NCBI GenBank assembly: GCA_016290095.1
Contig: JAEESU010000026.1
Coordinates: 8,573 to 72,572 of the forward strand
Direction: 5' to 3'
DNA: 64,000 bases
Origin: Clostridia bacterium
GTDB lineage: Bacteria; Bacillota; Clostridia; TANB77; CAG-508
The notes beneath the pieces were generated by a model that worked only from the letters and a program-made list of their open reading frames with translations, did not search any database and was not told where the DNA came from. The position numbers and the translations under genes were made by a program. Below are positions 40,160-54,621 of the stretch, in pieces (positions within the stretch are counted from its first letter, which is position 1; each line of letters starts with the position of its first letter).

Positions 40160-43100
40160 TTAATTAACTGTTAATCTACTTGGTCCACTTATGGCTTCAA
40201 CATCTGGATTGTAGTAATCATAAAATCTTATCGCTCCTCCTGTAATTTCCTCTGGATATAAAGCTCTATATTTTACATCTATTATGTATGAACTTTCTCT
40301 ATTCATGTTCCTAAAGTATATGTTTATTGAATTATAATTATATTCATATTTTTCTATAAGTCCATCATATTTTAATTTTAATAGAGTATCTTCAATTACT
40401 GATGCCCCTTGTGGAATATTTATTTTTAATAATCCATTTTCTACATTTTTATTTGGTTTAACTATAATTGTTTGTGTTATCTCACCATTTACATTAGTAG
40501 TATTAGTCATTGTGTAATTTAATTCTATATCTTCATTTGATTTGATATTAGAATAATCCATAGCGTATTTTTCCACAACTTCGTATATAATTTTACCTTT
40601 TTTCATTCCTATTTCTAACTTATTTTCTTTTGAAATATTATCAAATTCCACTTCATAAACATCTAAGAACTCGTCTTTAATATCGATACTTGAGTTTTTT
40701 CCATTTAAGTTGATTGTTATAGTTTGTTCTGAAACATCAGAAGTAGCTGAGAATTCATTAATTGCCTTTAATGCAAGTATTGTACTTTGCGTTGTTCCCC
40801 ACGTTCCACCTTGAGACTTTTTAGCAATTATATAATTTATAAATTCTGCATTATTTTTGTTTTCTTTATTTAATTTTGATAAAGCAAGTGAAGTTAATGC
40901 TGTAGTTTGTACATCTTGATAACGTCCATAAGATCCATAGTAATCATAGATTCTAGAACCTATGTATGCTCCGTCATCAACAACTGTAACATTATCCATT
41001 AATATTTTAATAATGTCTGTTGTGCTTTCATTTACATTTGCAAAAACATTTGCAATTAAAGCTAATGTATAATTATCTTCTTTAGAATAGTTTAGATTCT
41101 TTAGATAATTTACTGATTTGCTTAATCTTGAATCATCAGGACATACTGTTGATAATGCCCATGTAATATAAGCATTCATTGCTGTTTTGCTTGTGCTTGA
41201 TGAACCGCCTATATATGTAGATGAATAATCAAATGTACCATCCATATTTTGAACACTAAATAGATAATCAATCATATTGTTTATTACTTTTTCATCAATT
41301 TCATAAACATCTTTTAATTCATTAAATTCCATTAATCCAAAAGCTGTTATAACTGGTTCAGCTGGTGCATCTCCATATAAAGAATATCCACCTTTTTGGC
41401 CTGGGACTTCGTATGTAAGAAGTTTTTGATATCCTTTTGAAATATAATCTAATGCTTTTGTTCTTATTGCTTCATTATCCGAATTGTTTGATTTTAAATA
41501 TTTCAATACTAATATGTCTGGATATAATGATGATGATGTTTGTTCAAAGCATCCTGTTGGAAGACGTAGCATTGCTTCTATATTATCAATAGCTTGAATC
41601 ATAGGTGAAGGGAAAACTCTTACCTTCATCTTTTCTGTTCCAGGAATATAATTTTCATCAAATAATATATCCATTGAATAATTTTCTGTTATTATTCCAC
41701 TTGAAATATTTTTTTCAACTTCTAAGCCATTTATTTTTACAGTAAGATTTTTTTCGACAATATCAGCTCTTCCATTGGCTTTACTTTCAATTCTTAATGT
41801 ATTTATTCCTTCTTTTGTTATTTCAATTGGAATATAAATCATTTGTGTACCTTTAGCTGATACATCAATTGCTCTCTGGTAATTTCCAATAGTACTCCAA
41901 TTATTTTCAACCACATTTAAATCAACTTGTAAGTTTTCTTCTGTATAGTTATAAATTGTAACTGGAATACTCACTTTATCACTAACTACTGAATTAGTTG
42001 GCAATGAAAAGTCTATAAAATAATCTTTAAATACTTTGAATTGCGCATTGGCATATCCAATATTTCCATCTTTCGTATTTCCAACTGTTTGAATACTCCA
42101 TGTTGTTATATTATCACTAATTGGTACATTTAAGTCAGCTGTGCCATTTGAAGTAATTAGTTCAGGTATAAATGCCATACTTTCTAAGAAAATATTTCTA
42201 ACTTTTGTAGCTTTTTCTGAGAATCCTGTTTCTGAATTCTCTCTAAAACCATTTTCATCTGAATAATTTATATCTTCATTTTTTGAACTATTTACCGTAC
42301 TTGAAAAACTTTTAAATCCAAATATTGATTGATCGCCTGATGCTGTTCCTGTTGTATCTGAAGCTGATGTATCAGCGGGCATAACTGTTCCCATACTGTT
42401 TTTCATTTGAGACATCACATCTCCATAATCAGAACGTGGCATTACCATTTCTTCATCAACAGACATACTTGATAAGCTATCAGTAATAGTTGACTGAGCA
42501 CTATTATAAATATATAAACCAACCATAACAATTAATATTAAACCAATTAGCATTCCTATTATTTCTAGTGTTGTAACATTTATAACAATCTTATTGTCTT
42601 TTAAAAATTCATCTGGTTTCTTTTTCTTTTCTATCATTTTATTCAAGAAAATAAATAATGTTAAACATATAATTAGTGAAATTGCTTCACTATCTATAAT
42701 CTCTTCTGATAATATATAAAACAAAAATGCAAACGCACCAAATTTAATCATCATAATTAATAAGTAATCTAATATGATTAAAAATCTGCTCTTTAATTTT
42801 CCTTTTCTTTTCATTGCTGTTATTATTGTGAATAGCATTAATAGTGCTAATATTAATACATATATAACTATAGGATATGAATATTTGAAAATTGAATAAA
42901 TAATAGCACCTATTGGAAATATTATAAGTGGTATAAATATTTGATATATAGTCTTAAATATATCATCTCTAAATTTATATAAAACTAAAACATATAACAC
43001 AATTGATACTACAAGTACTGATAATAATATCAAAATAGAGTTATAGTCAAGTGCCCTGTAAATATCATAATATAAGTCTGTCATTTCAAATAATATAAGT

Positions 43101-45223
43101 ATCAAAATAAATATTCCTAAAACATTTATTACAGGTACTACAGAGTTTAAAACAAATTTTCTAAATTTTTCGAATTTATTAATACATAATATAAATATTA
43201 TTATTGCTGATACTAGTAGATATATTATCGCTTTAAACATTTCTATTTCGCTATCATAATTGTAAAAGCTTCTATTCACTATATTAGGATCTTTTCTGCT
43301 TTGTCTTAACAAAACGCTCATTAATAAAGTCTCTGATTCTTTTCCAATAACACTTGCATAAAGATCTGCAGCAGTTATTCCATCAGATAATTCTATATCT
43401 TCCAAAGCAATTTTTATATTGTCTATTGATAAATCATTATCTTGTAAACTTAAAATTGCTTCATCTAAAATACTAACTAAAAGTGCTGATTCAACAGATT
43501 GATTAGACTCATTTGTTGTTGTAAACTTAGCCTTTAATGTATCACCTGGTTCATACTCATCTTTTTCAAGATTAACTTCTATATTTAGAGCTTGATCAGG
43601 TTTTATAAATATTGTCTTTTTACTATAATTTGATCTACTGTAAGAATCATAATAATCATCATATTCATAATTATAATCATAATATGAATAACTATAATAG
43701 TTATTATTTTTTGATTTTGGTACATAAATATCTATTATACCTGTAAGTCCGTCTAAATTTACTTTTGTTTTATTTCCGTCAAATGTTACTGTTTTAATTA
43801 ATTCTCTGCCTTTGTATATGAAAGCTGAACTATTGTTATCATCTATTTTCGAAACTAACTCAATTTCAATATCTTCACCTTTTTCATATTTTACTTTATC
43901 TGTTTTTATTAAATTAATATCATTTATGCATTTAAAACTTTTACTTTTTCTAACAGTTTGTTCATTCATATCTTTTGCGTAAACTGTTATGTCAACAGAA
44001 GAATATGAAGATAATTGTGATATTTCTGAGCTTGTAAAAGTCACTTTACCAATTCCATTTTCATCAGAAATTAATTGTTTTGTTAAATTTCCAATTGAAA
44101 CTTGTGAATATGTTTTTACAGGATTTCCACTTGCTGTTTTAGTAAACACGTAAACATCGTTACTTACTTTATCAGCTATATCCCCATATTCTGGCAATAT
44201 CTCTATTTCAAATACATCTGTACCACATGAAATAGTTTTCTCTGCTTCGATCATATAATTTGAAGAATCTGTTACAGTAAAATTTGTATAAAAAGTTCCG
44301 GCCTTATCCATTTTGTATTTATATACAAAATTTCCATTTACATCTGTAAATCCCTTTACTTCTTCATTATTTATTGTTCCAGTTACAGTTGCTCTAGCAA
44401 CTGGCTCTCCAAAAAAATATTTACATGCGACTGTAATTTCGGCTTCATCATTAACCAAATAATCATCTTTATCTGTTAATATTGAGACTTCATATTTTGG
44501 AGTAATATATGGGTTTACATTAAATACTTTACTTACTTCTTGTCCATTAATATCTACACATATTTTATATGCTCCACTATTTACTTCATCAGCAAGTTTA
44601 AAACTTCCAGACAAGATTCCAAAATCTGATGTTTTTACTTTTTCTAAATATACTTTATTATCATTTCCATCATATATATATACAGAAACATCTGAACTTA
44701 TTGGTTTGCTATCTCTTTTGGAAATTATTAATGCTCTATAATTTATCTCATCACCTGGCTTGTATATTCCTTTATCTAAAGAAATAATTACATCATTTTG
44801 AATAGAAGGATTTATTGTAATTGGGTAATCAGCTTCACTACTATATAATCCTTTTCCTGCTTTAATTCGTAAATTATAATTTCCCTTTTCTAAATCTTCA
44901 GGAAGTTCTATTGATACTTCTTCTTGATTGTTTCCATCTGCTTTACAAGAATACTTTACATTTTTGACTTTTTTGTCATCTGAATCAAAAAGTTCAAATT
45001 TGTAATTAATATTTTTACTAGATTTATAATCATCACTTTCTAAGCTTACTAACATTTCGATGTTAGAACCAGCATAAAAAGTATCTGATGATTTAACTTT
45101 AATTCTATATTTGTTAGTAAAAATATAAGAAAATAAATTCTTAAATCCCATAAATACGCAAAAAACTAAGATAATAATAGCTAAGATAGTTAAAATTTTT
45201 TTCTTTTTCATATAATCCTCCAA
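40160..45223 (-). CDS. Alpha-2-macroglobulin family protein with N-terminal MG domains, a roughly ten-helix membrane insert, a Met/Ser/Asp-rich linker and a C-terminal thioester-domain region
   Basis: It is 1687 aa long. It has MG-like repeats (DKGIYKPGDEINYRALI), an internal polytopic hydrophobic block at about aa 650-900, the A2M motif RNIFLESMAFIPEL...ISDNITTWSIQTVG, and the thioester-type site PTGCFEQTSSSLYP. Confidence 0.75.
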   Translation of the reverse strand: MEDYMKKKKILTILAIIILVFCVFMGFKNLFSYIFTNKYRIKVKSSDTFYAGSNIEMLVSLESDDYKSSKNINYKFELFDSDDKKVKNVKYSCKADGNNQEEVSIELPEDLEKGNYNLRIKAGKGLYSSEADYPITINPSIQNDVIISLDKGIYKPGDEINYRALIISKRDSKPISSDVSVYIYDGNDNKVYLEKVKTSDFGILSGSFKLADEVNSGAYKICVDINGQEVSKVFNVNPYITPKYEVSILTDKDDYLVNDEAEITVACKYFFGEPVARATVTGTINNEEVKGFTDVNGNFVYKYKMDKAGTFYTNFTVTDSSNYMIEAEKTISCGTDVFEIEILPEYGDIADKVSNDVYVFTKTASGNPVKTYSQVSIGNLTKQLISDENGIGKVTFTSSEISQLSSYSSVDITVYAKDMNEQTVRKSKSFKCINDINLIKTDKVKYEKGEDIEIELVSKIDDNNSSAFIYKGRELIKTVTFDGNKTKVNLDGLTGIIDIYVPKSKNNNYYSYSYYDYNYEYDDYYDSYSRSNYSKKTIFIKPDQALNIEVNLEKDEYEPGDTLKAKFTTTNESNQSVESALLVSILDEAILSLQDNDLSIDNIKIALEDIELSDGITAADLYASVIGKESETLLMSVLLRQSRKDPNIVNRSFYNYDSEIEMFKAIIYLLVSAIIIFILCINKFEKFRKFVLNSVVPVINVLGIFILILILFEMTDLYYDIYRALDYNSILILLSVLVVSIVLYVLVLYKFRDDIFKTIYQIFIPLIIFPIGAIIYSIFKYSYPIVIYVLILALLMLFTIITAMKRKGKLKSRFLIILDYLLIMMIKFGAFAFLFYILSEEIIDSEAISLIICLTLFIFLNKMIEKKKKPDEFLKDNKIVINVTTLEIIGMLIGLILIVMVGLYIYNSAQSTITDSLSSMSVDEEMVMPRSDYGDVMSQMKNSMGTVMPADTSASDTTGTASGDQSIFGFKSFSSTVNSSKNEDINYSDENGFRENSETGFSEKATKVRNIFLESMAFIPELITSNGTADLNVPISDNITTWSIQTVGNTKDGNIGYANAQFKVFKDYFIDFSLPTNSVVSDKVSIPVTIYNYTEENLQVDLNVVENNWSTIGNYQRAIDVSAKGTQMIYIPIEITKEGINTLRIESKANGRADIVEKNLTVKINGLEVEKNISSGIITENYSMDILFDENYIPGTEKMKVRVFPSPMIQAIDNIEAMLRLPTGCFEQTSSSLYPDILVLKYLKSNNSDNEAIRTKALDYISKGYQKLLTYEVPGQKGGYSLYGDAPAEPVITAFGLMEFNELKDVYEIDEKVINNMIDYLFSVQNMDGTFDYSSTYIGGSSSTSKTAMNAYITWALSTVCPDDSRLSKSVNYLKNLNYSKEDNYTLALIANVFANVNESTTDIIKILMDNVTVVDDGAYIGSRIYDYYGSYGRYQDVQTTALTSLALSKLNKENKNNAEFINYIIAKKSQGGTWGTTQSTILALKAINEFSATSDVSEQTITINLNGKNSSIDIKDEFLDVYEVEFDNISKENKLEIGMKKGKIIYEVVEKYAMDYSNIKSNEDIELNYTMTNTTNVNGEITQTIIVKPNKNVENGLLKINIPQGASVIEDTLLKLKYDGLIEKYEYNYNSINIYFRNMNRESSYIIDVKYRALYPEEITGGAIRFYDYYNPDVEAISGPSRLTVN

Positions 45224-45242
45224 ATTAATTAATATAAGGCAA

Positions 45243-45272
45243 AAAAACTCAGCAGAAATATCTACTGAGCGT
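45243..45272 (-). terminator. Intrinsic terminator after the 85-aa ORF
   Basis: A CTCAGTAG-atattt-CTGCTGAG hairpin is followed by T7 on the minus strand. Confidence 0.5.
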
Positions 45273-45289
45273 ATTAAATTTATAATAAA

Positions 45290-45547
45290 TTATTTATTTT
45301 TCTTTGCAAATAAATTGATATCTTTAAAGAAAAAGTCATGTAATTCTGGAAATTCAATCTCTTGGAACCAAAAATCATGAACTTCTCTTAAAACTTTTGC
45401 TTGTTTTTCGGTTAGTTCTATTACAATTGGTCTATCTAAATCTATCTCTTTTAATAAGAAATGTTTAACTTTACTCCACATTCCAACTAAAACAGGTAAA
45501 TTTCCTGCTGATGTACTATCTACTTCTTTTAAGTTATATTCTTTCAT
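45290..45547 (-). CDS. Small hypothetical protein, 85 aa
   Basis: It is an ORF with its own terminator and no recognisable motifs. Confidence 0.35.
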   Translation of the reverse strand: MKEYNLKEVDSTSAGNLPVLVGMWSKVKHFLLKEIDLDRPIVIELTEKQAKVLREVHDFWFQEIEFPELHDFFFKDINLFAKKNK

Positions 45548-45646
45548 AATTAAGCTTTCCTCCTTAGTATAAATACTATATTACTTATTTTATACTACAA
45601 AAAGCCTAATTTATCAATATTTTAAAGTTTAAGTTTATATTAAGTT

Positions 45647-46951
45647 TTAATTACTATTTTGTAACATAGTACCAATTAGTGAAAGATTTTCCTGTTTTTC
45701 TACTATAACTGTTTTTATCATATTCTCAACATTTTGAGTGCTTCTACATTTTACTTGGATATAGTTTTGAGTATGTCCTTGATAATACTCATCTGTTTTT
45801 TCTTCGAAAAGCACTTCTACTTTTTTTCCAATAAGGCTTTCTAGATACTTTATTTCATTAGTGTCAGAAAGTTCTAGCAATATATTGCTTCTTTGTTCTT
45901 TTACTTCACCTGAAACTTGGTTAGGCATTAATTCTGCTTTTGTCCCTTTTCTTTGTGAATATTTAAAAATATGCATTTTGTAAAATTTTATTTTCTTTAA
46001 GAATTCATATGTTTGTTTAAATTCTTCTTCTGTCTCTCCTGGAAATCCAACTATAATATCTGTTGTCAAAATAACATCAGGATATACTTTTCTTAATTTT
46101 TCTACAATTTGTTCAAATTCATCAACTGAATATCTTCTATTCATTCTTTCCAATGTTTGCTCACATCCACTCTGTAGTGATAAATGAAAATGATGACAAA
46201 TTTTTTCTAGTTTTTGCAATCTTTCTAGAAACTCATCTGTAATAAGTAATGGCTCAATAGACCCCAATCTAATTCTTTCTATTCCATCTATTTTGTTAAT
46301 CTCTTCCAATAAATCAATTAAAGCATACCCATTTGTAAAATCTTTTCCATATGATGCAACATGAATTCCTGTAATAACAACTTCTTTTATTCCTTTTTTA
46401 GAAATTTCTTTTATTTCCTTTATAACACTTTCTGGTTTTCTACTTCTTACTCTGCCTCTTGCATATGGAATAATGCAATATGTACAAAATCTATCACATC
46501 CATCTTGAACTTTAATAACAGCTCTTGTTTTTTCTGTGTATGTAACTGTACCAAAATCTCCATATTCACGATTTTGCATTACATCATCAATTTCAATTTC
46601 TTCTCCATGAGACATGTTTGCTTCTATTATTTCTACTATATTTACTTTTTCATTAGTTCCTATTACTAAATCTATTTCAGGGATTTGCTCTACCTCATCT
46701 TTAGCAACCTGCACATAGCAACCACATGCAACTACCAATGCATTTTTATTTTTTTTCTTAGCTTGTCTCAACATTTGCCTTGATTTTCTATCTGACATAT
46801 TAGTTACTGTGCAAGTATTAATTACATATATATCTGCTATATCATCAAAATCAACTAGTTCATATCCATTCTTTAAGAATTCCTGAATCATCCCATTTGT
46901 TTCATATTGATTTACTTTACATCCCAAAGTGTAAAAAGCAACTTTCTTCAT
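45647..46951 (-). CDS. Radical-SAM tRNA methylthiotransferase (MiaB-like, MtaB type)
   Basis: It has the N-terminal MTTase Cys triad (C11 of TLGCKVN, C47 of INTCTV, C76 of ACGCY), the radical-SAM CDRFCTYC motif, a C-terminal TRAM-like domain, and is 434 aa long. Confidence 0.8.
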   Translation of the reverse strand: MKKVAFYTLGCKVNQYETNGMIQEFLKNGYELVDFDDIADIYVINTCTVTNMSDRKSRQMLRQAKKKNKNALVVACGCYVQVAKDEVEQIPEIDLVIGTNEKVNIVEIIEANMSHGEEIEIDDVMQNREYGDFGTVTYTEKTRAVIKVQDGCDRFCTYCIIPYARGRVRSRKPESVIKEIKEISKKGIKEVVITGIHVASYGKDFTNGYALIDLLEEINKIDGIERIRLGSIEPLLITDEFLERLQKLEKICHHFHLSLQSGCEQTLERMNRRYSVDEFEQIVEKLRKVYPDVILTTDIIVGFPGETEEEFKQTYEFLKKIKFYKMHIFKYSQRKGTKAELMPNQVSGEVKEQRSNILLELSDTNEIKYLESLIGKKVEVLFEEKTDEYYQGHTQNYIQVKCRSTQNVENMIKTVIVEKQENLSLIGTMLQNSN

Positions 46952-47036
46952 TTCTACCTCTATTTTAATCTTAATATTATAAAATACTCACACTACATAT
47001 AATGTGAGTATTTTACAATTGTATGTTTGGATTTTA

Positions 47037-48032
47037 TTATTTTCTCATTCTATCTATATTATCTAAATTATCTAATGCTTTTCCTGTTCCTTTGGCAACA
47101 CATGAAATTGCATCCTCTGCAATCATAACATTTATTCCTAATTTATCTTGTAATAATCTATCAAATCCATCTAGTAAACATCCTCCACCTGTCATATAAA
47201 TTCCTTTGTCAGAAATATCTGCAGCAAGCTCTGGAGGTGTTTTTTCTAAAACCGCATGAACAGCATCTACTATTAGCATTGCTGGCTCTTCTAAAGCTTC
47301 TACCATCTCACTTGAATACATAGTAATAGTTCTTGGAAGTCCTGTTATAAGATCTCTTCCTCTTACATCCATTTCCATATCTTGAATTTTAGGATATACA
47401 CATCCAATTTGTTGTTTTAATTCTTCTGCTGTTCTTTCACCAATCATTACATTGTGGCGTTTTTTAATATATTTAACAATGAATTCATCAAATTTATCAC
47501 CAGCAACTTTAATTGAAGAGCTAACAACTGACCCTCCCAATGAAATAACTGCAATATCTGTTGTTCCTCCACCGATATCTACTATCATATTTCCACATGG
47601 TTTTGAAATATCTATTCCAGCTCCAATTGCAGCCGCAATTGGTTCCTCTATTAAATAAACTCTTCTAGCTCCGGCATTAGAAGCAGCATCAATAACAGCT
47701 TTTTTCTCAACTTCTGTTACTTGTGAAGGAATACAAATCATAATTCTAGGAGCAAAGAAAAACCTACCACATATTTTATTTATAAAATACTTTAGCATTT
47801 TTTCTGTAACAGTATAATCTGATATTACTCCATCTCTCAAAGGTCTTGTAGCAACAATATTTCCTGGCGTTCTTCCAAGCATTCTTCTAGCTTCATGTCC
47901 AACAGCTAGAACTTCACCTGTAACATTATTTACTGCAACAACTGATGGTTCTCTTAGAACAATTCCTTTGCCCTTAACATATGCAATTACTGTAGCTGTT
48001 CCTAAATCGATTCCAATGTCTTGTCCGAACAT
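47037..48032 (-). CDS. mreB: Rod shape-determining protein MreB/Mbl
   Basis: The protein begins IGIDLGTATVIAYV, contains DIGGGTTDIAV, and is 331 aa long. Confidence 0.9.
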   Translation of the reverse strand: MFGQDIGIDLGTATVIAYVKGKGIVLREPSVVAVNNVTGEVLAVGHEARRMLGRTPGNIVATRPLRDGVISDYTVTEKMLKYFINKICGRFFFAPRIMICIPSQVTEVEKKAVIDAASNAGARRVYLIEEPIAAAIGAGIDISKPCGNMIVDIGGGTTDIAVISLGGSVVSSSIKVAGDKFDEFIVKYIKKRHNVMIGERTAEELKQQIGCVYPKIQDMEMDVRGRDLITGLPRTITMYSSEMVEALEEPAMLIVDAVHAVLEKTPPELAADISDKGIYMTGGGCLLDGFDRLLQDKLGINVMIAEDAISCVAKGTGKALDNLDNIDRMRK

Positions 48033-48143
48033 TAATCATTCTCTCCTTTGAAATAAACTAAGTTAATATATTACATTCACATTACAATTATATTACATCC
48101 ACTTCTAAATATCAACCCCTTTTAAAATTAATTTATTAAATAT

Positions 48144-48172
48144 TTGTATTAGTAAAAACTCTGTGATATAAT
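48144..48172 (+). promoter_or_regulatory. Sigma-A-type promoter for the GT2 gene
   Basis: It has a -35 TTGTAT at 48144-48149, a 17-bp spacer, and an extended -10 TGaTATAAT at 48164-48172. Confidence 0.45.
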
Positions 48173-48213
48173 GACTATGTTAAAATTTATTTGAATTATT
48201 GTAGGAGTAAAAT

Positions 48214-49146
48214 ATGGAAAAAATATCTGTAATAGTTCCTTGTTATAATGAGGAAAAAGCACTACCTTTATTTTATGAAGAATTAAGCAAAAATATTAAA
48301 AATTTTCCAAGCGAAGTAGAATTCGAAATTCTTTTTGTTGATGATGGTTCAAAAGATAAAACTTTAAAATTAATTAAAGATTTACAAGAAAAGAATCATA
48401 ATATAAAATACATTTCATTTTCAAGAAATTTTGGTAAAGAAGCTGCTATTTTTGCTGGATTAGAAAATGCCAGTGGTGATTATGTAACATTAATGGATGC
48501 TGATCTTCAAGATCCACCTTCTCTTCTTTTAAAAATGTATGAAACTGTTACTCAAGAAAATTATGATGCTGTTGGCACTAGAAGAGTTGATAGGACTGGT
48601 GAACCTGTAATTAGAAGTTTCTTTGCAAGAATGTTTTATAAATTGATAAACAAAATGACAAGTTTTGAAATGGTTGATGGAGCAAGAGATTATGTTTTCA
48701 TGAAAAGAGTTGTTGTAGATAGCATTATTTCTTTAAAAGAATATAATCGTTATTCAAAAGGTTTGTTTAGTTTTGTAGGCTTCAAAGTAAGATGGTTAGA
48801 ATACAAAAATATTCAAAGAGTTGCTGGTGAAACAAAATGGTCATTCTTTAAGCTTACAAAATATGCTTTAGAGGGAATTACAGCTTTTTCAACAACACCT
48901 CTTATAGTTTCTTCAATAATTGGATTACTATTTTGCGTAGTTTCATTTTTATTAATCTTATTAATTATATTTAAAACATTAATTCTAGGGGATCCAACAA
49001 GTGGTTGGCCATCTCTTGTTTGTATAATATTTATGGTAAGTGGAATTCAATTATTCTCATTAGGAATTATTGGCCAATACTTATCAAAAACATATTTGGA
49101 AGTTAAGCAAAGACCAATTTACATAGTAAGAGAAAAAAATTTTTAA
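48214..49146 (+). CDS. GT2-family polyprenyl-phosphate glycosyltransferase (GtrB/CsbB-like) with C-terminal TM helices
   Basis: The protein begins ISVIVPCYNEE, contains VDDGSKD and DADLQDPP, and has two C-terminal TM helices. Confidence 0.85.
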   Translation: MEKISVIVPCYNEEKALPLFYEELSKNIKNFPSEVEFEILFVDDGSKDKTLKLIKDLQEKNHNIKYISFSRNFGKEAAIFAGLENASGDYVTLMDADLQDPPSLLLKMYETVTQENYDAVGTRRVDRTGEPVIRSFFARMFYKLINKMTSFEMVDGARDYVFMKRVVVDSIISLKEYNRYSKGLFSFVGFKVRWLEYKNIQRVAGETKWSFFKLTKYALEGITAFSTTPLIVSSIIGLLFCVVSFLLILLIIFKTLILGDPTSGWPSLVCIIFMVSGIQLFSLGIIGQYLSKTYLEVKQRPIYIVREKNF

Positions 49147-49207
49147 AATCACATAGTTGATTTATTATTTTTTGTTGAAAGACCATGAGTTCAGAAATTA
49201 TTAAAAT

Positions 49208-49258
49208 AAAAGTGAGAGATGTTCAGCTATGCTGAAAGAGGCTCACTTTTATTTTTTA
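49208..49258. terminator. Intrinsic terminator between convergent genes
   Basis: An AGTGAGAG...CTCACT nested hairpin is followed by TTTTATTTTTT. Confidence 0.55.
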
Positions 49259-49316
49259 TAAGCTCTACGAAATTTTCTTAATCATAAAGTAATATAAAAA
49301 TTTAATAAATCAACTT

Positions 49317-49721
49317 TCACAATATGTTTTTAAGAATCAATTCATCTTTCTGCTTAAAATGATTCAACCAATAAATAAATTCTTTTCCATTTATTAATGC
49401 CTGATTAAATTCTTGATTATTAGCATTTTCTTCAAGCATAATTAAACTACTTGTAACTTTCTCAAGTTCATCATGCTCAATATAATAAGATAAAATCTTT
49501 TCTTTTTCAAACCAGTCATTTTTTAGTTTCTCAATATTATTTTCATTTTCTCTTCTATATAATTTTTCTATTACTTCTTCAGCATCAGCAAAAATTAAAT
49601 CAACTATTTTATTTGTATAATTTACAGTAATAATTTCTAAAGCAACAATTAGAATAATTATAACACCAACTAATCCTATTTCTTTTTTTATTCCCATCTG
49701 TTTCCTTCCTTTTTCTGGCAA
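49317..49721 (-). CDS. DUF4363-like small membrane-anchored protein
   Basis: It has an N-terminal TM. It is paired with the upstream DUF421 gene, overlapping it by 34 nt, as is typical for YetF-type loci. Confidence 0.45.
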   Translation of the reverse strand: MPEKGRKQMGIKKEIGLVGVIIILIVALEIITVNYTNKIVDLIFADAEEVIEKLYRRENENNIEKLKNDWFEKEKILSYYIEHDELEKVTSSLIMLEENANNQEFNQALINGKEFIYWLNHFKQKDELILKNIL

Positions 49722-50371
49722 AAAATAGACCCATCACCATTAAGCACAACAACCAAAGCTTCTTCGGGCTTCATATTGAATTTTCCCACTTCTCTTTCTA
49801 ACCAACTATAATCCTTATTCAATTTTTCTAAATTCTCTAACATCACTTTACCATCAATAACCAAGTCATATGCAATTCCTTCATATGCTACATCTATATT
49901 AAAATCTTTCGGACATAAAGCTCTTTTTTCTGGCTTTAAAACTACACTTATTTGTCCGCTTGTCTCTAATATTGCAAATTCAACATCTCCAATATTACTT
50001 ATGTTATTAACTCTTAATCTTTCTTGCAATTCATTTATTGTAAAATTCTCATCAACCATTGCTTTTTCATCTATCTTGCCTCTATAAATCAAAATTTTCG
50101 GTTTACCACATATTATTTCTCTAATTTTTATGCTTTTTAAATTTAATATTGAAATAATAATATGCAACATTAACAAGCTTAAAATCGGTATAATTCCATA
50201 AAGAAGTGGTGTACCGATATCACCCATCGGAGTTGAAGCTAAGTCCGCGATCATAATTGCAATTACCAATTCAAATGGTTGCATTTGGCCAATTTCTCTT
50301 TTCCCCATAAATCTTATAACAAATAATACCAACACATATAAAATAATTGTCCTGACAAAAATTAAAAACAT
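49688..50371 (-). CDS. DUF421 (YetF family) membrane protein
   Basis: It has three N-terminal TM helices followed by a conserved soluble domain (ELQERLR...GDVEFAILETSGQISV). Confidence 0.6.
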   Translation of the reverse strand: MFLIFVRTIILYVLVLFVIRFMGKREIGQMQPFELVIAIMIADLASTPMGDIGTPLLYGIIPILSLLMLHIIISILNLKSIKIREIICGKPKILIYRGKIDEKAMVDENFTINELQERLRVNNISNIGDVEFAILETSGQISVVLKPEKRALCPKDFNIDVAYEGIAYDLVIDGKVMLENLEKLNKDYSWLEREVGKFNMKPEEALVVVLNGDGSIFCQKKEGNRWE

Positions 50372-50491
50372 GTTTTCCTCAAATTACAAATTTTATATGA
50401 ATATTTTTCGCAAAAAAAATCAAAATATACTTATATTTGTTTAATTTTTTAATTATCAAATATACTTTTCTAATTAAGGAGGTTTGTCAAA

Positions 50492-50869
50492 ATGAATAAC
50501 AATAATTCAAGTGCTGAATCAAATAGTTCAATGAATACTGTTGGACAATTAATTGGAAGATTTGTTGTTGCTGCTATTATTTTAGGAATAACAGCCTTCT
50601 TTACACCTGGTTTTTCTATTAATAATATTTGGACATTAGCAATATCCGCTCTTGTTCTAACAGTTATGGATTATTTAATAGTAAAATTTACTGGTCTACA
50701 CGCTATGGCTTTCGGTAAAGGTTTCGTTGGATTTGTACTTGCAGTTGTAATATTATATGCCACTCAATTTTTTGTTGCTGGATATACAATATCTTGGATG
50801 GCAGCAATTATTGGAGCATTAATATATGGTATAATTGATTACATTATGCCTGGCGAACAAAGAATGTAG
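50492..50869 (+). CDS. DUF360 / phage-holin-4_2 (YvlD-like) four-TM membrane protein
   Basis: It has two internal repeats, each with a (P/A)G(F/Y)xI..(I/W)W motif followed by a TM helix. Confidence 0.5.
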   Translation: MNNNNSSAESNSSMNTVGQLIGRFVVAAIILGITAFFTPGFSINNIWTLAISALVLTVMDYLIVKFTGLHAMAFGKGFVGFVLAVVILYATQFFVAGYTISWMAAIIGALIYGIIDYIMPGEQRM

Positions 50870-50996
50870 TAAAAAGCGATGTGTTAAGCATTATTTAAAT
50901 AATTTTTAACATATCGCTAAATTTTTTTAATTTTTTTAAAATTTTTTGTCACATTTTGCTACTCTGAATTGTTTTACTTATGAGAGGAGTAAAAAT

Positions 50997-51689
50997 ATGA
51001 TTAAAGTTTTAATAGTTTGTAAACAATTAGAAAATGCAAAGAAAATATTCAATAATATTGTAAGTAAAATTAAAAATCTACATTTAATTGGAATTGCAAA
51101 TTCGTTTCAAGAAGCAAAAAAGATATTAATAGATGAAGAAGCAGATATTATTATCACAACTTCGAAAAATACTGTTACATTTATAAAAAATAATTTTATT
51201 ACATATAATCCTGGTATTATAATTATTGATAATATTCCAAGAATTGAATTTGATTATCGCAAAGCCTTAATTATTAGTAATGAGAAAAGTCTTGATGAAA
51301 TAAAAGATAGAATACAATTCTTTTTAAGACACAATATTGAAAAATCTCAAAAAGAAACAATATCTTCCGTTTTAACTCAATTAGGCTTCAGCTTTAATTG
51401 GTCTGGAACAATATATCTTTTAGATTCAATTTTATACGCACATTCATATAAAGGCTCATATAGTTTTGAACGTGTTAAACGAGATATTTATTTTAATGTA
51501 GCTAATTCCAATAATACCACAAGTAGTAGAGTAAAATGGTCTATAGAAAGAGCAATAAAATACATGTACAGTAAGCATACTAAAGAAACATATAAATATG
51601 TAGAAAAATTACTAAAAATTAAATATCCACAAAGACCTGTTGCAAAACAAATTATCAGCATTGTAGCAAATTCTTTAGATTTACTTTAA
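50997..51689 (+). CDS. Spo0A-like protein with a degenerate, non-phosphorylatable receiver domain plus a Spo0A_C DNA-binding domain
   Basis: The C-terminal 120 aa align with Spo0A_C: ISSVLTQLG..GTIYLLDSILYA, NTTSSRVKWSIERAIKYMYS and RPVAKQIISIVANSL. The N-terminal fold is receiver-like, but the acidic pocket and phospho-Asp are replaced (KVLIVCKQ and DIIITTSKN). The start was chosen at MIKV, which follows a GAGGAG RBS. Confidence 0.6.
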   Translation: MIKVLIVCKQLENAKKIFNNIVSKIKNLHLIGIANSFQEAKKILIDEEADIIITTSKNTVTFIKNNFITYNPGIIIIDNIPRIEFDYRKALIISNEKSLDEIKDRIQFFLRHNIEKSQKETISSVLTQLGFSFNWSGTIYLLDSILYAHSYKGSYSFERVKRDIYFNVANSNNTTSSRVKWSIERAIKYMYSKHTKETYKYVEKLLKIKYPQRPVAKQIISIVANSLDLL

Positions 51690-51699
51690 TTGGCAAGAG

Positions 51700-51830
51700 T
51701 TTCACAGTTTCACAGGGACGTTCCTTTTAGTGCCAAAATGAAACTAAAGGGACACTCCTTATATAAGGAGTGTCCCAAGTGTGTCAAAATAGAACTAAAA
51801 GGAACGTCCCTGTGAAACTGTGAAAAAATG
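51700..51830. repeat. Full-length nested palindromic intergenic repeat element between convergent genes
   Basis: The outer 32-bp inverted arms are TTTCACAGTTTCACAGGGACGTTCCTTTTAGT and ACTAAAAGGAACGTCCCTGTGAAACTGTGAAA. The inner perfect palindrome is GGGACACTCCTTATATAAGGAGTGTCCC. Confidence 0.7.
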
Positions 51831-51843
51831 AAACCGTGGAATT

Positions 51844-54621
51844 TTAGCTTAAATTATCTCTACAGTTTTCACATAGTGTTGGGTGCTCTGCATTTTGTCC
51901 TACTGTTTCTGAATACATCCAGCATCTTTCACATTTTTCTCCACTGGCTTTTTCAACTTTAACACCTAAATCTACTTCTTCATCTGCATTTCTTCTATTG
52001 CTTAATATTTCAACATCAGATACTATGAATACATCTTTTAATATATCTCTGTTTTCTTTTAAAAATTCATATTGATCATTTTCTTCCGCATAAAGTGTAA
52101 CTTTTGCTTCTAATGATAATCCTATTTCTTTTTCTGTCCTTGCTACTTCTAGTTTTTTACTTACAGCATCTTTTATTTTTATAATTTTTTCCCATTTTAA
52201 TGATAATGCTTCATCATCATATTTTGGATTTACTTTTGGATAATACTCAAGCATAACACTTTCTGTATTTTCTCCATTTTTATGTTGCATATAACTCCAT
52301 ATTTCTTCTGCAGTAAAGCATGTCATTGGAGCTAGTATTCTAACTAAACAAGATAATATTTCATACATTGTTGTTTGAGCTGCTCTTCTTTCTATAGATT
52401 GAGGTTTAGTTACATATAATCTATTTTTTATGATATCTAAGTAGAATTGACTCATATCAACAACGCAAAATTGATTGATTGCTTGATAAGCTTCATGGAA
52501 ATCATAATTATCATATGCTTTCGTGCAAGTTCTTATTAAATTGTTTAATCTTGTTAAAGCCCATTTATCTATTTCTTGTAAATCTTCATATGCTACTGGA
52601 TTGTTTGGATTATAATCATAAGTATTTCCTAATATATATCTAGCTGTGTTTCTTATTTTTCTGTATACTTCTGTTACTTGTTTTAATATATTCTTAGATA
52701 CACTTACATCTGATTGATAGTCTGATGCAAGAACCCAAAGTCTTAAAACATCTGCTCCGGATTCCTTAATTATTTCTTGAGGAGCAATTACATTTCCTAC
52801 AGATTTACTCATTTTTCTTCCTTGTTCATCAACTGTATATCCGTGAGTAACAACTTGTTTATAAGGTGCTTTTCCAAAATTTGCTACAGATGTTAAAAGT
52901 GAACTTTGGAACCATCCTCTATATTGGTCAGATCCTTCTAAGTAAAGATCTGCTTCTGGAAGTCCTCTTTCCTCCAATACTGAATGATATGTTGATCCGC
53001 TATCAAACCAAACATCCATAATATCTGTTTCTTTCTTAAATTCTGTACATCCGCATTCGCATTTAGCATTCTCAGGCATTAATTCTTTTTCAGATAAATC
53101 GAACCATGCGTTTGACCCTTTTTCTTTAAATATTTCTTGAACTTTCTTTAATGACTCATCTGTCATATATGGCTTACCGCAATCTTTACAATAGAATGCT
53201 GGAATTGGAACTCCCCATGTTCTTTGACGAGATATACACCAATCATTTCTATCTTCAACCATTTTTGAGATTCTTTCTTCACCCCAAGCAGGTATCCATT
53301 TTACAGTTTTAATTGCTTCTAATGTTTCTTTTCTAAATCCATCAACAGATGCAAACCACTGATTTGTAGCTCTAAATATAACTGGTTTTTTACATCTCCA
53401 GCAATGTGGATATGAGTGCATTACATCTTCTTCTTTTAGTAATAAATTATGTTCTTCTAACCATTTTAAGATTTCTTTGTTTGATTTAGCATAAAACATA
53501 TCTTTAAATGGTCCAGCGCCTTCTCCTCTTTGAACACCTTTTTCATCAACAGTTACTATTATTTCACTATTTTTCTTTAATCCTAATAAATAGTCTTCTT
53601 TACCATAACTAGGTGCACAGTGAACTAATCCAGAGCCTGTTTCAAGTTCTACATTAACAGTATCTTCTGAACCATTTACAACTAAAGAATCTCTATCTAA
53701 AAATGGATGACGACAAACTAAACCTTCTAATTCTGCTCCATCAAACTCTTTTAATACTTTATATTCTTTTATACCAGCTTTTTCCATTACTTTATTTACA
53801 AGTTCTGATGCGATTACTATTTTTTCACCATTTTCTTCAACTAAAGCGTATTTGAAATCTGGTCCAGCAGCAATCATAGTATTTCCAGGTAATGTCCATG
53901 GAGTTGTTGTCCAAATTACAAAATAAGTATTTTCTTTATCAAATAATCCTTTACTATCTTTAACAGGAAATTTTACAAAAGCAGTTTGACTCATTACATC
54001 TTTATATTCGATTTCTGCTTCTGCTAATGCTGTTTCACAATCTGTGCACCAATAAACTGGTTTTAATCCTTTATAAATGTATCCTTTTCTATACATACCA
54101 GCAAACACTTCAACTTGTTTTGCTTCCATTTGAGGTTGATATGTTATATATGGATGTTCCCAATCTCCTAATACTCCTAATCTTTTAAATCCTTCTGTTT
54201 GAGCATCTTTATATTTTGATGTAAATTCTCTACAAGTATCTCTAAATGTATTTACAGGTATTTTACTTCTATCCAATCCTAATTTTTCTATTGCCTTTTT
54301 CTCTGTTGGCATACCATGTGTATCGTATCCAGGAATATAAGGAGTATAATATCCTTGTAAATTTTTATATCTAACAACAGTATCTTTTAATACTTTATTT
54401 AGTGCATGACCTATATGAATTTCTCCATTTGCATATGGAGGTCCATCATGTAGCACAAATGGTGTTTTACCCTCATTCTTTTTTAACATTTTTTCATATA
54501 AACCATTTTCAAATACTTTTTCTAGTATTTTAGGTTCATTTTCTGGTAAACTTGCTCTCATTGGAAACTCTGTTTTTGGCAAGTTTAGTGTTTTTCCATA
54601 ATCTTTCTTTTCTTCACACAT
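51844..54621 (-). CDS. ileS: Isoleucine--tRNA ligase
   Basis: It is 925 aa long. It has a HIGH-type motif (PYANGEIHIGH), KMSKS, and a C-terminal zinc-binding set of Cys residues. Confidence 0.95.
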   Translation of the reverse strand: MCEEKKDYGKTLNLPKTEFPMRASLPENEPKILEKVFENGLYEKMLKKNEGKTPFVLHDGPPYANGEIHIGHALNKVLKDTVVRYKNLQGYYTPYIPGYDTHGMPTEKKAIEKLGLDRSKIPVNTFRDTCREFTSKYKDAQTEGFKRLGVLGDWEHPYITYQPQMEAKQVEVFAGMYRKGYIYKGLKPVYWCTDCETALAEAEIEYKDVMSQTAFVKFPVKDSKGLFDKENTYFVIWTTTPWTLPGNTMIAAGPDFKYALVEENGEKIVIASELVNKVMEKAGIKEYKVLKEFDGAELEGLVCRHPFLDRDSLVVNGSEDTVNVELETGSGLVHCAPSYGKEDYLLGLKKNSEIIVTVDEKGVQRGEGAGPFKDMFYAKSNKEILKWLEEHNLLLKEEDVMHSYPHCWRCKKPVIFRATNQWFASVDGFRKETLEAIKTVKWIPAWGEERISKMVEDRNDWCISRQRTWGVPIPAFYCKDCGKPYMTDESLKKVQEIFKEKGSNAWFDLSEKELMPENAKCECGCTEFKKETDIMDVWFDSGSTYHSVLEERGLPEADLYLEGSDQYRGWFQSSLLTSVANFGKAPYKQVVTHGYTVDEQGRKMSKSVGNVIAPQEIIKESGADVLRLWVLASDYQSDVSVSKNILKQVTEVYRKIRNTARYILGNTYDYNPNNPVAYEDLQEIDKWALTRLNNLIRTCTKAYDNYDFHEAYQAINQFCVVDMSQFYLDIIKNRLYVTKPQSIERRAAQTTMYEILSCLVRILAPMTCFTAEEIWSYMQHKNGENTESVMLEYYPKVNPKYDDEALSLKWEKIIKIKDAVSKKLEVARTEKEIGLSLEAKVTLYAEENDQYEFLKENRDILKDVFIVSDVEILSNRRNADEEVDLGVKVEKASGEKCERCWMYSETVGQNAEHPTLCENCRDNLS

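Follow-up and report, generated by a model that had tools for sequence, protein, structure and literature searches.

A bacterial thioester-protein homolog with a predicted eight-helix membrane domain at the bait position

What is a polytopic membrane domain doing inside a protein of the alpha-2-macroglobulin (A2M) and complement type? This question is raised by a gene on the minus strand of a 64,000-nucleotide (nt) stretch of Clostridia bacterium DNA (assembly GCA_016290095.1, contig JAEESU010000026.1; hereafter the window). The gene encodes a homolog of the thioester-containing proteins (TEPs), which we call A2M-TM for the transmembrane (TM) block it carries. To our knowledge, characterised A2M/complement-type proteins are all soluble, lipid-anchored (ECAM, and CD109 with its glycosylphosphatidylinositol (GPI) anchor) or single-pass, with either a free loop or a small soluble domain as the activation segment. 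We found that the A2M-TM protein has, at the level of sequence, the domain set and the thioester motif that define the TEP superfamily. With modest confidence, we read it as a membrane-embedded protease trap in which the linker that follows the eighth TM helix would serve as the bait.

Gene, family and domain frame

By open reading frame (ORF) list and translation, the coding frame runs without interruption from 40160 to 45223 on the minus strand. The mechanical ORF reaches a TTG at 45223 that overlaps the ribosome-binding site; the start codon is likely the ATG at 45211 (MKKKK...), which has a GGAGG 6 nt upstream and gives a protein of 1683 amino acids (aa) with its stop codon at 40160-40162. 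A database entry, P0001, is identical to the window protein and is also 1683 aa long. The 1687-aa ORF of an earlier, sequence-only reading is therefore correct as an open frame, while the likely protein is 1683 aa; that reading had left the strand unstated. A plus-strand reading was rejected, as stop codons occur throughout it. An ORF of 5 kb in DNA of 27% GC, with the Pfam E-values given below, is well past chance expectation. The features of the gene are as follows; structural models were made with AlphaFold2 (AF2) for aa 420-1130 and aa 640-915, with confidence given as predicted local distance difference test (pLDDT) values and predicted TM-score (pTM), and MG denotes macroglobulin domains.

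40160..45211, minus: A2M/TEP homolog gene (ORF list, translation, ribosome-binding site, same-length database entry P0001)
45131..45211, minus: signal-anchor helix with N-terminal MKKKK, aa 1-27 (hydropathy peak at aa 6-24, family consensus)
43463..45124, minus: MG-domain array, aa 30-583, extracellular by topology prediction (Pfam, AF2 beta domains, PDB matches)
44516-44791, minus: MG2, aa 141-232 (Pfam, 1.7e-21)
43445-43909, minus: A2M_BRD, aa 435-589 (Pfam, 2.5e-5)
43259..43462, minus: conserved helical segment, aa 584-651 (family consensus, AF2 helices at pLDDT 51-64)
42494..43258, minus: predicted eight-helix transmembrane domain, aa 652-906, 255 aa (hydropathy and AF2)
42188..42493, minus: disordered hypervariable Ser/Thr/Asp/Glu/Met-rich linker, the proposed bait, aa 907-1008 (AF2, composition)
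41915..42178, minus: A2M domain, aa 1012-1099 (Pfam PF00207, 6.9e-19)
40754..41596, minus: thioester domain (TED) TED_complement, aa 1206-1486 (Pfam, 6.2e-35)
41540-41554, minus: GCFEQ, aa 1220-1224 (translation)
40193..40432, minus: C-terminal MG8/receptor-binding-type domain A2M_recep, aa 1594-1673 (Pfam, 1.3e-6)

The sequence-only reading had itself raised the possibility that the hydrophobic block is an assembly artefact joining two genes. When we searched 5.8 billion proteins, we found 296 relatives, of which 120 were listed; the counts below refer to those 120. The listed homologs are 40-62% identical to the window protein, most of them cover ~100% of the query, and they stem from NCBI, ENA, JGI and Logan assemblies. 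All 120 have the TM block at the same place together with GCFEQ, and 119 of them are 1640-1724 aa long; the exception, of 1548 aa, also has both. In the databases they are named 'hypothetical protein' or given a generic A2M family name. A single-sequence query of genome contigs returned 4 loci, and the related loci come from metagenome-assembled genomes (MAGs) of gut Clostridia (roe deer cecum, Candidatus Scatovivens, mouse gut). The sole point in favour of an assembly chimera, or of two or three misjoined genes, is that GC falls to 20% over the block, and the Ile/Leu/Phe/Lys codons account for this dip. Against it stand the single uninterrupted frame, the retention of the architecture in homologs from independent assemblies and the conserved synteny; we consider the artefact refuted and its chance of being real negligible.

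In the Pfam search, MG2, A2M_BRD, A2M, TED_complement and A2M_recep all scored above their gathering thresholds (A2M_recep at 29.4 bits against a cutoff of 21.7) and MG3 was sub-threshold, which bears out the proposed membership of the A2M family. The thioester Cys and Gln that the sequence-only reading saw in GCFEQ are indeed retained throughout the listed family. The A2M-specific motif that it pointed out is also confirmed, as RNIFLESMAFIPEL and ITTWSIQTVG stand at the opening of the A2M domain, after the bait site; this domain corresponds to the second MG6 half together with MG7. MG1-MG4 of TEP1, CD109 and C3 align with the N-terminal region in PDB profile alignments, and the segments either side of the TED are presumed to form a CUB domain. 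The whole protein contains 10 Cys residues, so that extensive disulfide bridging is unlikely. Searches of NCBIfam and PADLOC gave no meaningful match; the A2M-TM protein is thus neither a named equivalog nor a catalogued defence protein. A Tyr-rich low-complexity stretch, NNNYYSYSYYDYNYEYDDYYDSYS, at aa 500-527 (43631-43714, minus) falls within a loop that joins two MG-type beta domains; the stretch is modelled at low pLDDT, and its sequence differs from homolog to homolog.

The membrane domain and linker at the bait site

To place the insert, we mapped its two flanks. On the N-terminal side, A2M_BRD runs to its profile end at aa 589; this boundary rests on the Pfam match, since aa 420-660 alone gave only chance matches to PDB sequences and the profile alignments end within MG1-MG4. 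On the C-terminal side, phmmer aligned aa 1003 with residue 730 of human A2M, aa 1000 with residue 707 of A2ML1 and residue 600 of TEP1, and aa 1024 with residue 727 of CD109. We take the human A2M bait to be residues 690-728 in UniProt numbering, so homology restarts directly after the bait. In the AF2 model of aa 420-1130, beta domains are followed by a helical segment, eight TM helices, an unstructured stretch and again beta domains. With this model, Foldseek matched the flanks to CD109 (3.8e-9), then to C5, C3, A2ML1 and A2M, and more weakly to ECAM (5a42, 1e-6) and Salmonella A2M (4u48, 5e-6), in alignments that extend over ~720-750 columns, that is, across the insert. A2Ms carry the bait at this site, and C3/C4/C5 carry an anaphylatoxin domain there. 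Together, the sequence comparisons support insertion of the predicted membrane domain at the bait/anaphylatoxin position, as the sequence-only reading had claimed. Before the membrane domain lies the conserved helical segment, whose family consensus is NDLSIDNIKLALxDIxLxDGxTAADLYA...LLKQ; it may resemble the linker region of C3/A2M.

By Kyte-Doolittle hydropathy, the protein has 8 internal hydrophobic segments within aa 652-906 and an N-terminal anchor helix at aa 6-24, giving 9 helices in all. The AF2 model of aa 640-915 consists of eight long, compactly packed helices (pLDDT 84.3, pTM 0.73). The contiguous hydrophobic block of about 250 aa that had been read from the sequence is thus real, at 255 aa, while the count of 9-10 TM segments within it comes down to 8 by both hydropathy and AF2. 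In 61 homologs, we counted 701 Lys/Arg residues in the four predicted cytoplasmic loops as compared to 37 in the three outer loops. The predicted cytoplasmic loops are short (6-18 aa), conserved and basic. An even helix number, the N-terminal anchor and the positive-inside bias together lead us to predict that the N- and C-terminal halves both lie outside the cell, with a short cytoplasmic N-terminus. In this layout MG1-MG6 precede the eight membrane crossings, and the A2M domain, the TED and the MG8-type domain come after the linker. A canonical lipobox is missing from the N-terminus, MKKKKILTILAIIILVFCVFMGF, and no Cys near it is conserved in the family consensus, indicating that the A2M-TM protein is not a lipoprotein.

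Could the TM block have an activity of its own, as a transporter, channel or enzyme that the A2M parts regulate or decorate? The confidently modelled, compact eight-helix domain would suit such a role, and so would a Lys (Lys823) in predicted helix 6 that is ~60% conserved in the family. Nevertheless, a Pfam search of the domain at E<=10 returned only sub-threshold hits that we take as noise (DUF6057, 0.005; TgpA_N, 0.048), and a Foldseek search of the domain model against PDB found no solved-structure match (best E 1.9, TM-score <=0.28). Very little of the domain sequence is conserved: one residue, Tyr740, never varies, conservation extends to an LYK motif, to Pro761 and to GKIxLNI ahead of helix 8, and the family alignment shows no network of conserved charged or polar residues. 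Moreover, as described below, relatives swap the block for 2, 4, 6 or 10 helices or for none, which would be unexpected for a catalytic or transport core. We therefore find an activity of the block itself very improbable; its poorly conserved sequence and few conserved polar residues fit an anchor better than an enzyme or transporter. Lys823 lies at ~42743-42745 (minus), and the window copy has an Asp, Asp814, in the same helix.

Immediately after helix 8 comes the linker. The Met/Ser/Asp-rich low-complexity segment that the sequence-only reading placed after the hydrophobic block is real by composition count: within its 102 residues, S+T number 30, D+E 16 and M 7. Its pLDDT is ~27-36 and it is mostly without secondary structure, with a helix modelled from ~aa 995. 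Across 118 homologs, linker length ranges over 69-133 aa with a median of 88, the sequences are all but impossible to align, and Ser (2.2x), Met (1.9x) and Asp/Glu are over-represented, with Lys, Leu and Tyr depleted. The linker fills the C-terminal part of the bait site and the membrane domain fills the remainder. A segment at the activation site that is disordered, exposed and hypervariable is what would be expected of a bait.

We therefore asked what these parts might do together. As a TEP-superfamily member at the cell surface, embedded in the cytoplasmic membrane of a gut Clostridium with a monoderm envelope, the A2M-TM protein would present the exposed linker adjoining helix 8 as its bait. 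A protease arriving at the membrane surface, whether host digestive or microbial, would cleave the linker; the C-terminal half would then rearrange, as other TEPs do, and expose the GCFEQ thioester, which would acylate a lysine of the protease and so immobilise it on a protein with nine membrane helices. The membrane domain would be mainly a compact anchor: it would pin the bait to the bilayer at one end and keep the protein from being lost from a cell without an outer membrane. We favour this reading because the full TEP domain set is present with a conserved GCFEQ, because the position of the insert, the predicted external location of both halves and the bait-like linker fit it, and because the TM domain is anchor-like, amine-type reactivity is expected and the gene shows fast, surface-type evolution (see below). 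The relatives also come from animal-gut MAGs, a protease-rich habitat. Several points weigh against it. We infer thioester formation, bait cleavage and trapping all from homology. The linker has a low Lys content (0.5x), and its length is 2-3 times that of characterised baits. Eight helices exceed what anchoring would need given the N-terminal anchor, and their compact packing in the model hints at an added role. The neighbours of the gene are housekeeping genes, and no partner gene of known function adjoins it. Finally, distant relatives of the same layout appear to be anti-sigma factors, which points to sensing and not to pure inhibition.

If the bait is arranged in this way, a folded eight-helix membrane domain stands at the activation site and the presumed bait has one end fixed at the bilayer, which would alter the possible conformational switch and would leave the protein membrane-held after cleavage. 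Hundreds of gut Clostridia sequences share the architecture, which may provide a system for testing how monoderm bacteria of the gut withstand host proteases.

Thioester chemistry and likeness to known systems

To identify the closest characterised proteins, we compared the profile with PDB sequences. The best matches were CD109 (5e-81), TEP1 (3.5e-74), human A2M (2e-73), A2ML1 (1.9e-68) and C3 (~1e-55), and no E. coli or Salmonella A2M was found among the 60 best PDB sequence matches. As judged by sequence, metazoan TEPs are much nearer kin of the A2M-TM family than the characterised bacterial A2Ms are. It shares with CD109, TEP1, A2M and A2ML1 the same Pfam set, including TED_complement and A2M_recep, the Cys-x-Glu-Gln thioester motif and, putatively, an activation segment between the MG6 halves. 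CD109 is membrane-bound by a GPI anchor, and the A2M-TM protein is likewise predicted to be bound to the membrane. In contrast to metazoan TEPs, an eight-helix domain and a ~100-aa linker here replace a soluble bait of ~40 aa, the motif is CFEQ and not CGEQ, and the protein has an N-terminal signal anchor, few Cys residues and a bacterial host.

The A2M-TM protein resembles complement proteins in its domain frame and in carrying an entire folded module at this position; among the fold matches of the aa 420-1130 model, C5 and C3 rank near the top. In C3/C4/C5, the helical anaphylatoxin domain sits at this site and its proteolytic removal triggers activation, whereas the module inserted here is predicted to span the membrane and to stay in it; we detected no C345C domain in the A2M-TM protein. 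The catalytic His is also absent: its position in C3/CD109 (VIHSE) aligns to a Gly (STYIGG in the family), and there is no His nearby. This His lets C3, C4B and TEPs acylate hydroxyl groups. By analogy with C3/C4 chemistry, its replacement by Gly would favour A2M-like acylation of amines rather than complement-like acylation of hydroxyls.

The missing His bears on whether the protein might be a covalent adhesin or tagging protein, with a thioester that binds host mucus, food particles, other microbes or phage and not proteases. Complement-type TEPs and Gram-positive thioester adhesins do attach covalently to surfaces; in line with such a role, conservation of the thioester motif is strict, opsonin-type TEP1 and membrane-bound CD109 are among the nearest relatives with solved structures, and the gene evolves fast like other surface proteins. 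Without the His, however, hydroxyl acylation is disfavoured, a membrane-embedded protein under the peptidoglycan wall would be badly placed for external surfaces, and a disordered bait-like segment is kept at the activation site. We consider adhesion or tagging improbable and continue to prefer the protease trap.

Two types of bacterial A2M have been characterised. Type I A2Ms (ECAM/YfhM, SaA2M) are lipoproteins of diderm bacteria and are often paired with pbpC. Like them, the A2M-TM protein is a bacterial TEP with a thioester motif that is predicted to be tethered to the cytoplasmic membrane and to face the envelope; it is presumed to be a protease snap-trap as they are, and the Foldseek matches to 5a42 and 4u48 show structural similarity. 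Unlike them, it has no lipobox, no adjacent penicillin-binding protein (PBP) gene, a Bacillota host and a polytopic anchor at the bait site, and none of the bacterial-MG Pfam families bMG3, bMG5, bMG6 and bMG10 was found in it at E<=0.1. With type II (MagD/YfaS) it shares an MG-domain A2M fold associated with the inner membrane, and one family member is named 'YfaS (alpha-2-macroglobulin family)' in IMG. The bacterial A2M types are summarised in PMC5764988, and in passages of PMC5764988 and PMC3735191 MagD is described as having no thioester and acting within the multi-gene mag operon. In contrast to type II, GCFEQ is invariant here (120/120 listed homologs) and the gene is apparently monocistronic. 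By these sequence features, the A2M-TM protein lacks defining features of both characterised bacterial types.

In the full-text literature that we searched, we found no description of a TM-inserted bacterial A2M, although absence there is no proof. A 2026 review places bacterial A2Ms mainly in Gram-negative bacteria and restates the hypothesis of a metazoan-to-bacterium transfer (PMC13069473). The present clade bears on the origin of the complement/A2M fold: its sequence lies nearer to metazoan TEPs than that of the E. coli type, and it is represented in several phyla, which is awkward for a simple transfer of this kind.

Relatives with other insertions, and the genomic neighbourhood

To see how far the architecture extends, we ran an exhaustive HMMER search over representative clusters with the C-terminal 684 aa as query. 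This returned 8144 representative clusters at E<1e-3, of which 1901 also passed E<1e-30; of the 150 best-scoring representatives (P0145-P0287 among them), nearly all contain CFEQ. We mapped both flanks of the insertion site in 120 of these best 150 and counted the internal helices at the bait site with a crude hydropathy predictor.

0 internal helices: 52 clusters
2 internal helices: 6 clusters
4 internal helices: 6 clusters
6 internal helices: 20 clusters
7-8 internal helices: 28 clusters
9-10 internal helices: 4 clusters

A few further relatives have other odd helix counts, which we read as under-calls of the predictor. The occurrence of 0, 2, 4, 6, 8 or 10 helices at one site suggests that the site tolerates, and repeatedly carries, membrane insertions added hairpin by hairpin. 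The architecture that had been called unusual from the sequence is therefore not a one-off: it is typical of a large family and recurs with other helix counts. The relatives without TM helices still have long inserts at the bait site, with 135-436 aa between the mapped flanks. Of ten TM-bearing relatives, two are named, as Thermoclostridium and Armatimonadota, and the presence of the TM block in Armatimonadota argues against a strict restriction to monoderms. The broader clade is found in Armatimonadota, Actinomycetota, Poribacteria and other groups, where annotations are generic ('alpha-2-macroglobulin family protein', 'MG2 domain-containing protein').

In some of the relatives, which share ~30% identity with the window protein in the C-terminal half, the TM-inserted A2M body is preceded by a zf-HC2 anti-sigma domain at the N-terminus (E 1e-12 to 1e-4). 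We examined three of their loci, and in all three the gene directly follows that of an extracytoplasmic function (ECF) sigma factor, with a 4-nt overlap in 2/3.

L011:3450-8971: zf-HC2 relative P0295, directly after an ECF sigma gene
L012:3405-9016: zf-HC2 relative P0204, directly after an ECF sigma gene
L013:3372-8932: zf-HC2 relative P0311, directly after an ECF sigma gene

From domain content and gene order, these relatives look like A2M-type anti-sigma factors in a classic sigma/anti-sigma arrangement; we found no A2M-type anti-sigma factor described in the full-text literature searched, which again is no proof of absence. A bait site that accepts 2 to 10 helices across a superfamily of 8144 representative clusters, with ECF anti-sigma fusions among them, may offer a route to protease-responsive gene regulation in bacteria. 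The window protein shares the TM-inserted A2M body with P0204, P0295 and P0311; in contrast to them, it has no zf-HC2 match and no adjacent sigma gene.

Other modules also occur on this body. P0178 (2080 aa) has zf-HC2, a TM block and, after that block, YscJ/FliF (6.6e-37) and YscJ_FliF_C between A2M_BRD and A2M, so that its bait site houses a module of the ring-building secretion/flagellar kind. The Armatimonadota relatives P0299, P0302, P0348 and others have a T2SSG/pseudopilin-type match (PF08334) and are named 'type II secretion system protein GspG'; the T2SSG-type domain is another route by which the A2M body is tethered to the membrane.

In the window, the gene order is IleRS, DUF421, DUF4363, GT2, MreB, MiaB-like radical SAM, an ORF of 85 aa, A2M-TM, gap and pgk. 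The same neighbour order is found beside homologs of 41-51% identity, which indicates that the A2M-TM gene is inherited vertically. When we compared 35674-54621 with loci L001 and L005, the A2M-TM protein was ~50% identical, as compared to 93% for MreB, 91-95% for GAPDH, 83-88% for PGK and 82% for GT2. An identity of ~50% amid highly similar flanks points to fast evolution, as is often seen in exposed surface proteins. The features around the gene are these.

45247..45270, minus: terminator-like hairpin with T-run between the 85-aa ORF and the A2M-TM gene (terminator scan)
40125..40153, minus: terminator-like hairpin just past the A2M-TM stop codon (terminator scan)
45290..45547, minus: conserved 85-aa ORF directly upstream of the A2M-TM gene (ORF and related loci)

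The terminator scan gave 3 sites where 0.8 were expected, and the hairpins on both sides of the gene suggest, from sequence, that it is a monocistronic unit; the count of promoter-like sites was not above chance. No PBP gene adjoins the A2M-TM gene in the window, and the related loci are alike in this respect. The only class A PBP in the window (Transgly and Transpeptidase) lies at the distant 3035-5716, which agrees with the sequence-only reading that there is no adjacent PBP1C partner. No sigma factor or kinase gene stands next to the A2M-TM gene. The presence of a PolC gene in the window identifies the genome as Bacillota.

The product of the 85-aa ORF has 15 D/E and 13 K/R residues and no signal peptide, TM helix or Pfam match. 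Copies of 82-85 aa are present at L001:5508-5738, L005:7624-7875, L008:5611-5859, L009:5651-5902 and L010:5609-5866. They are 62-70% identical across loci, and the ORF stays directly upstream in L009 despite a different wider context. It is absent in L002 and L003, where the upstream genes differ. Among the loci compared, including these two, no neighbour other than the 85-aa ORF is conserved beyond the close clade. A database search with the ORF returned only 11 matches, of 83-88 aa and none of them annotated. For three of these, the longest contigs (82494, 16703 and 7752 nt) equal in size those of A2M-TM homologs, suggesting that the two genes lie together. It is possible that the 85-aa product is a partner of the A2M-TM protein.

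These relatives and this neighbour raise the question of whether the protein could be a sensor or signal transducer, whose ectodomain would detect proteolysis or another trigger of thioester opening and signal through the eight-helix bundle to a membrane or cytoplasmic partner, for example the 85-aa upstream protein, with trapping secondary. The zf-HC2 relatives share the layout and adjoin ECF sigma genes, the TM block is modelled as compact with conserved basic cytoplasmic loops, and a small conserved, apparently cytoplasmic protein travels with the gene into a different genomic context. However, the window protein has no cytoplasmic domain beyond its MKKKK N-terminus and short loops, it adjoins neither a sigma factor nor a kinase gene, a terminator-like hairpin separates it from the 85-aa ORF, and that ORF is missing beside some family members. 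We regard signalling by this protein as unlikely, if plausible, and as the leading alternative to the protease trap.

A wider version of the idea, to which we also assign a low probability, is that TM-inserted thioester proteins in general are membrane-integrated protease or damage receptors in which cleavage or thioester opening is transduced through the helix bundle. If so, the distant relatives would signal straight to an ECF sigma factor via the fused zf-HC2 domain, and the window's family would signal to a partner of another kind, perhaps the 85-aa protein. The complement/A2M superfamily would then gain its first polytopic-membrane member in the A2M-TM protein, which would act as a bacterial 'complement-like' surveillance receptor and belong to a very large bacterial clade nearer to metazoan TEPs than the E. 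coli proteins are.

Two further regions near the gene are recorded here. Between gap and pgk lie two ORFs on the minus strand, at 36986-37984 (332 aa) and 38080-38796 (238 aa), that have no Pfam match; in related loci, this interval holds differing unannotated ORFs (L005, L008) or none. At 50946-51689 (plus), a gene encodes a 247-aa protein with Spo0A_C (6.9e-11) beside a Phage_holin_4_2 family gene at 50492-50869 (plus), and both are conserved in L005.

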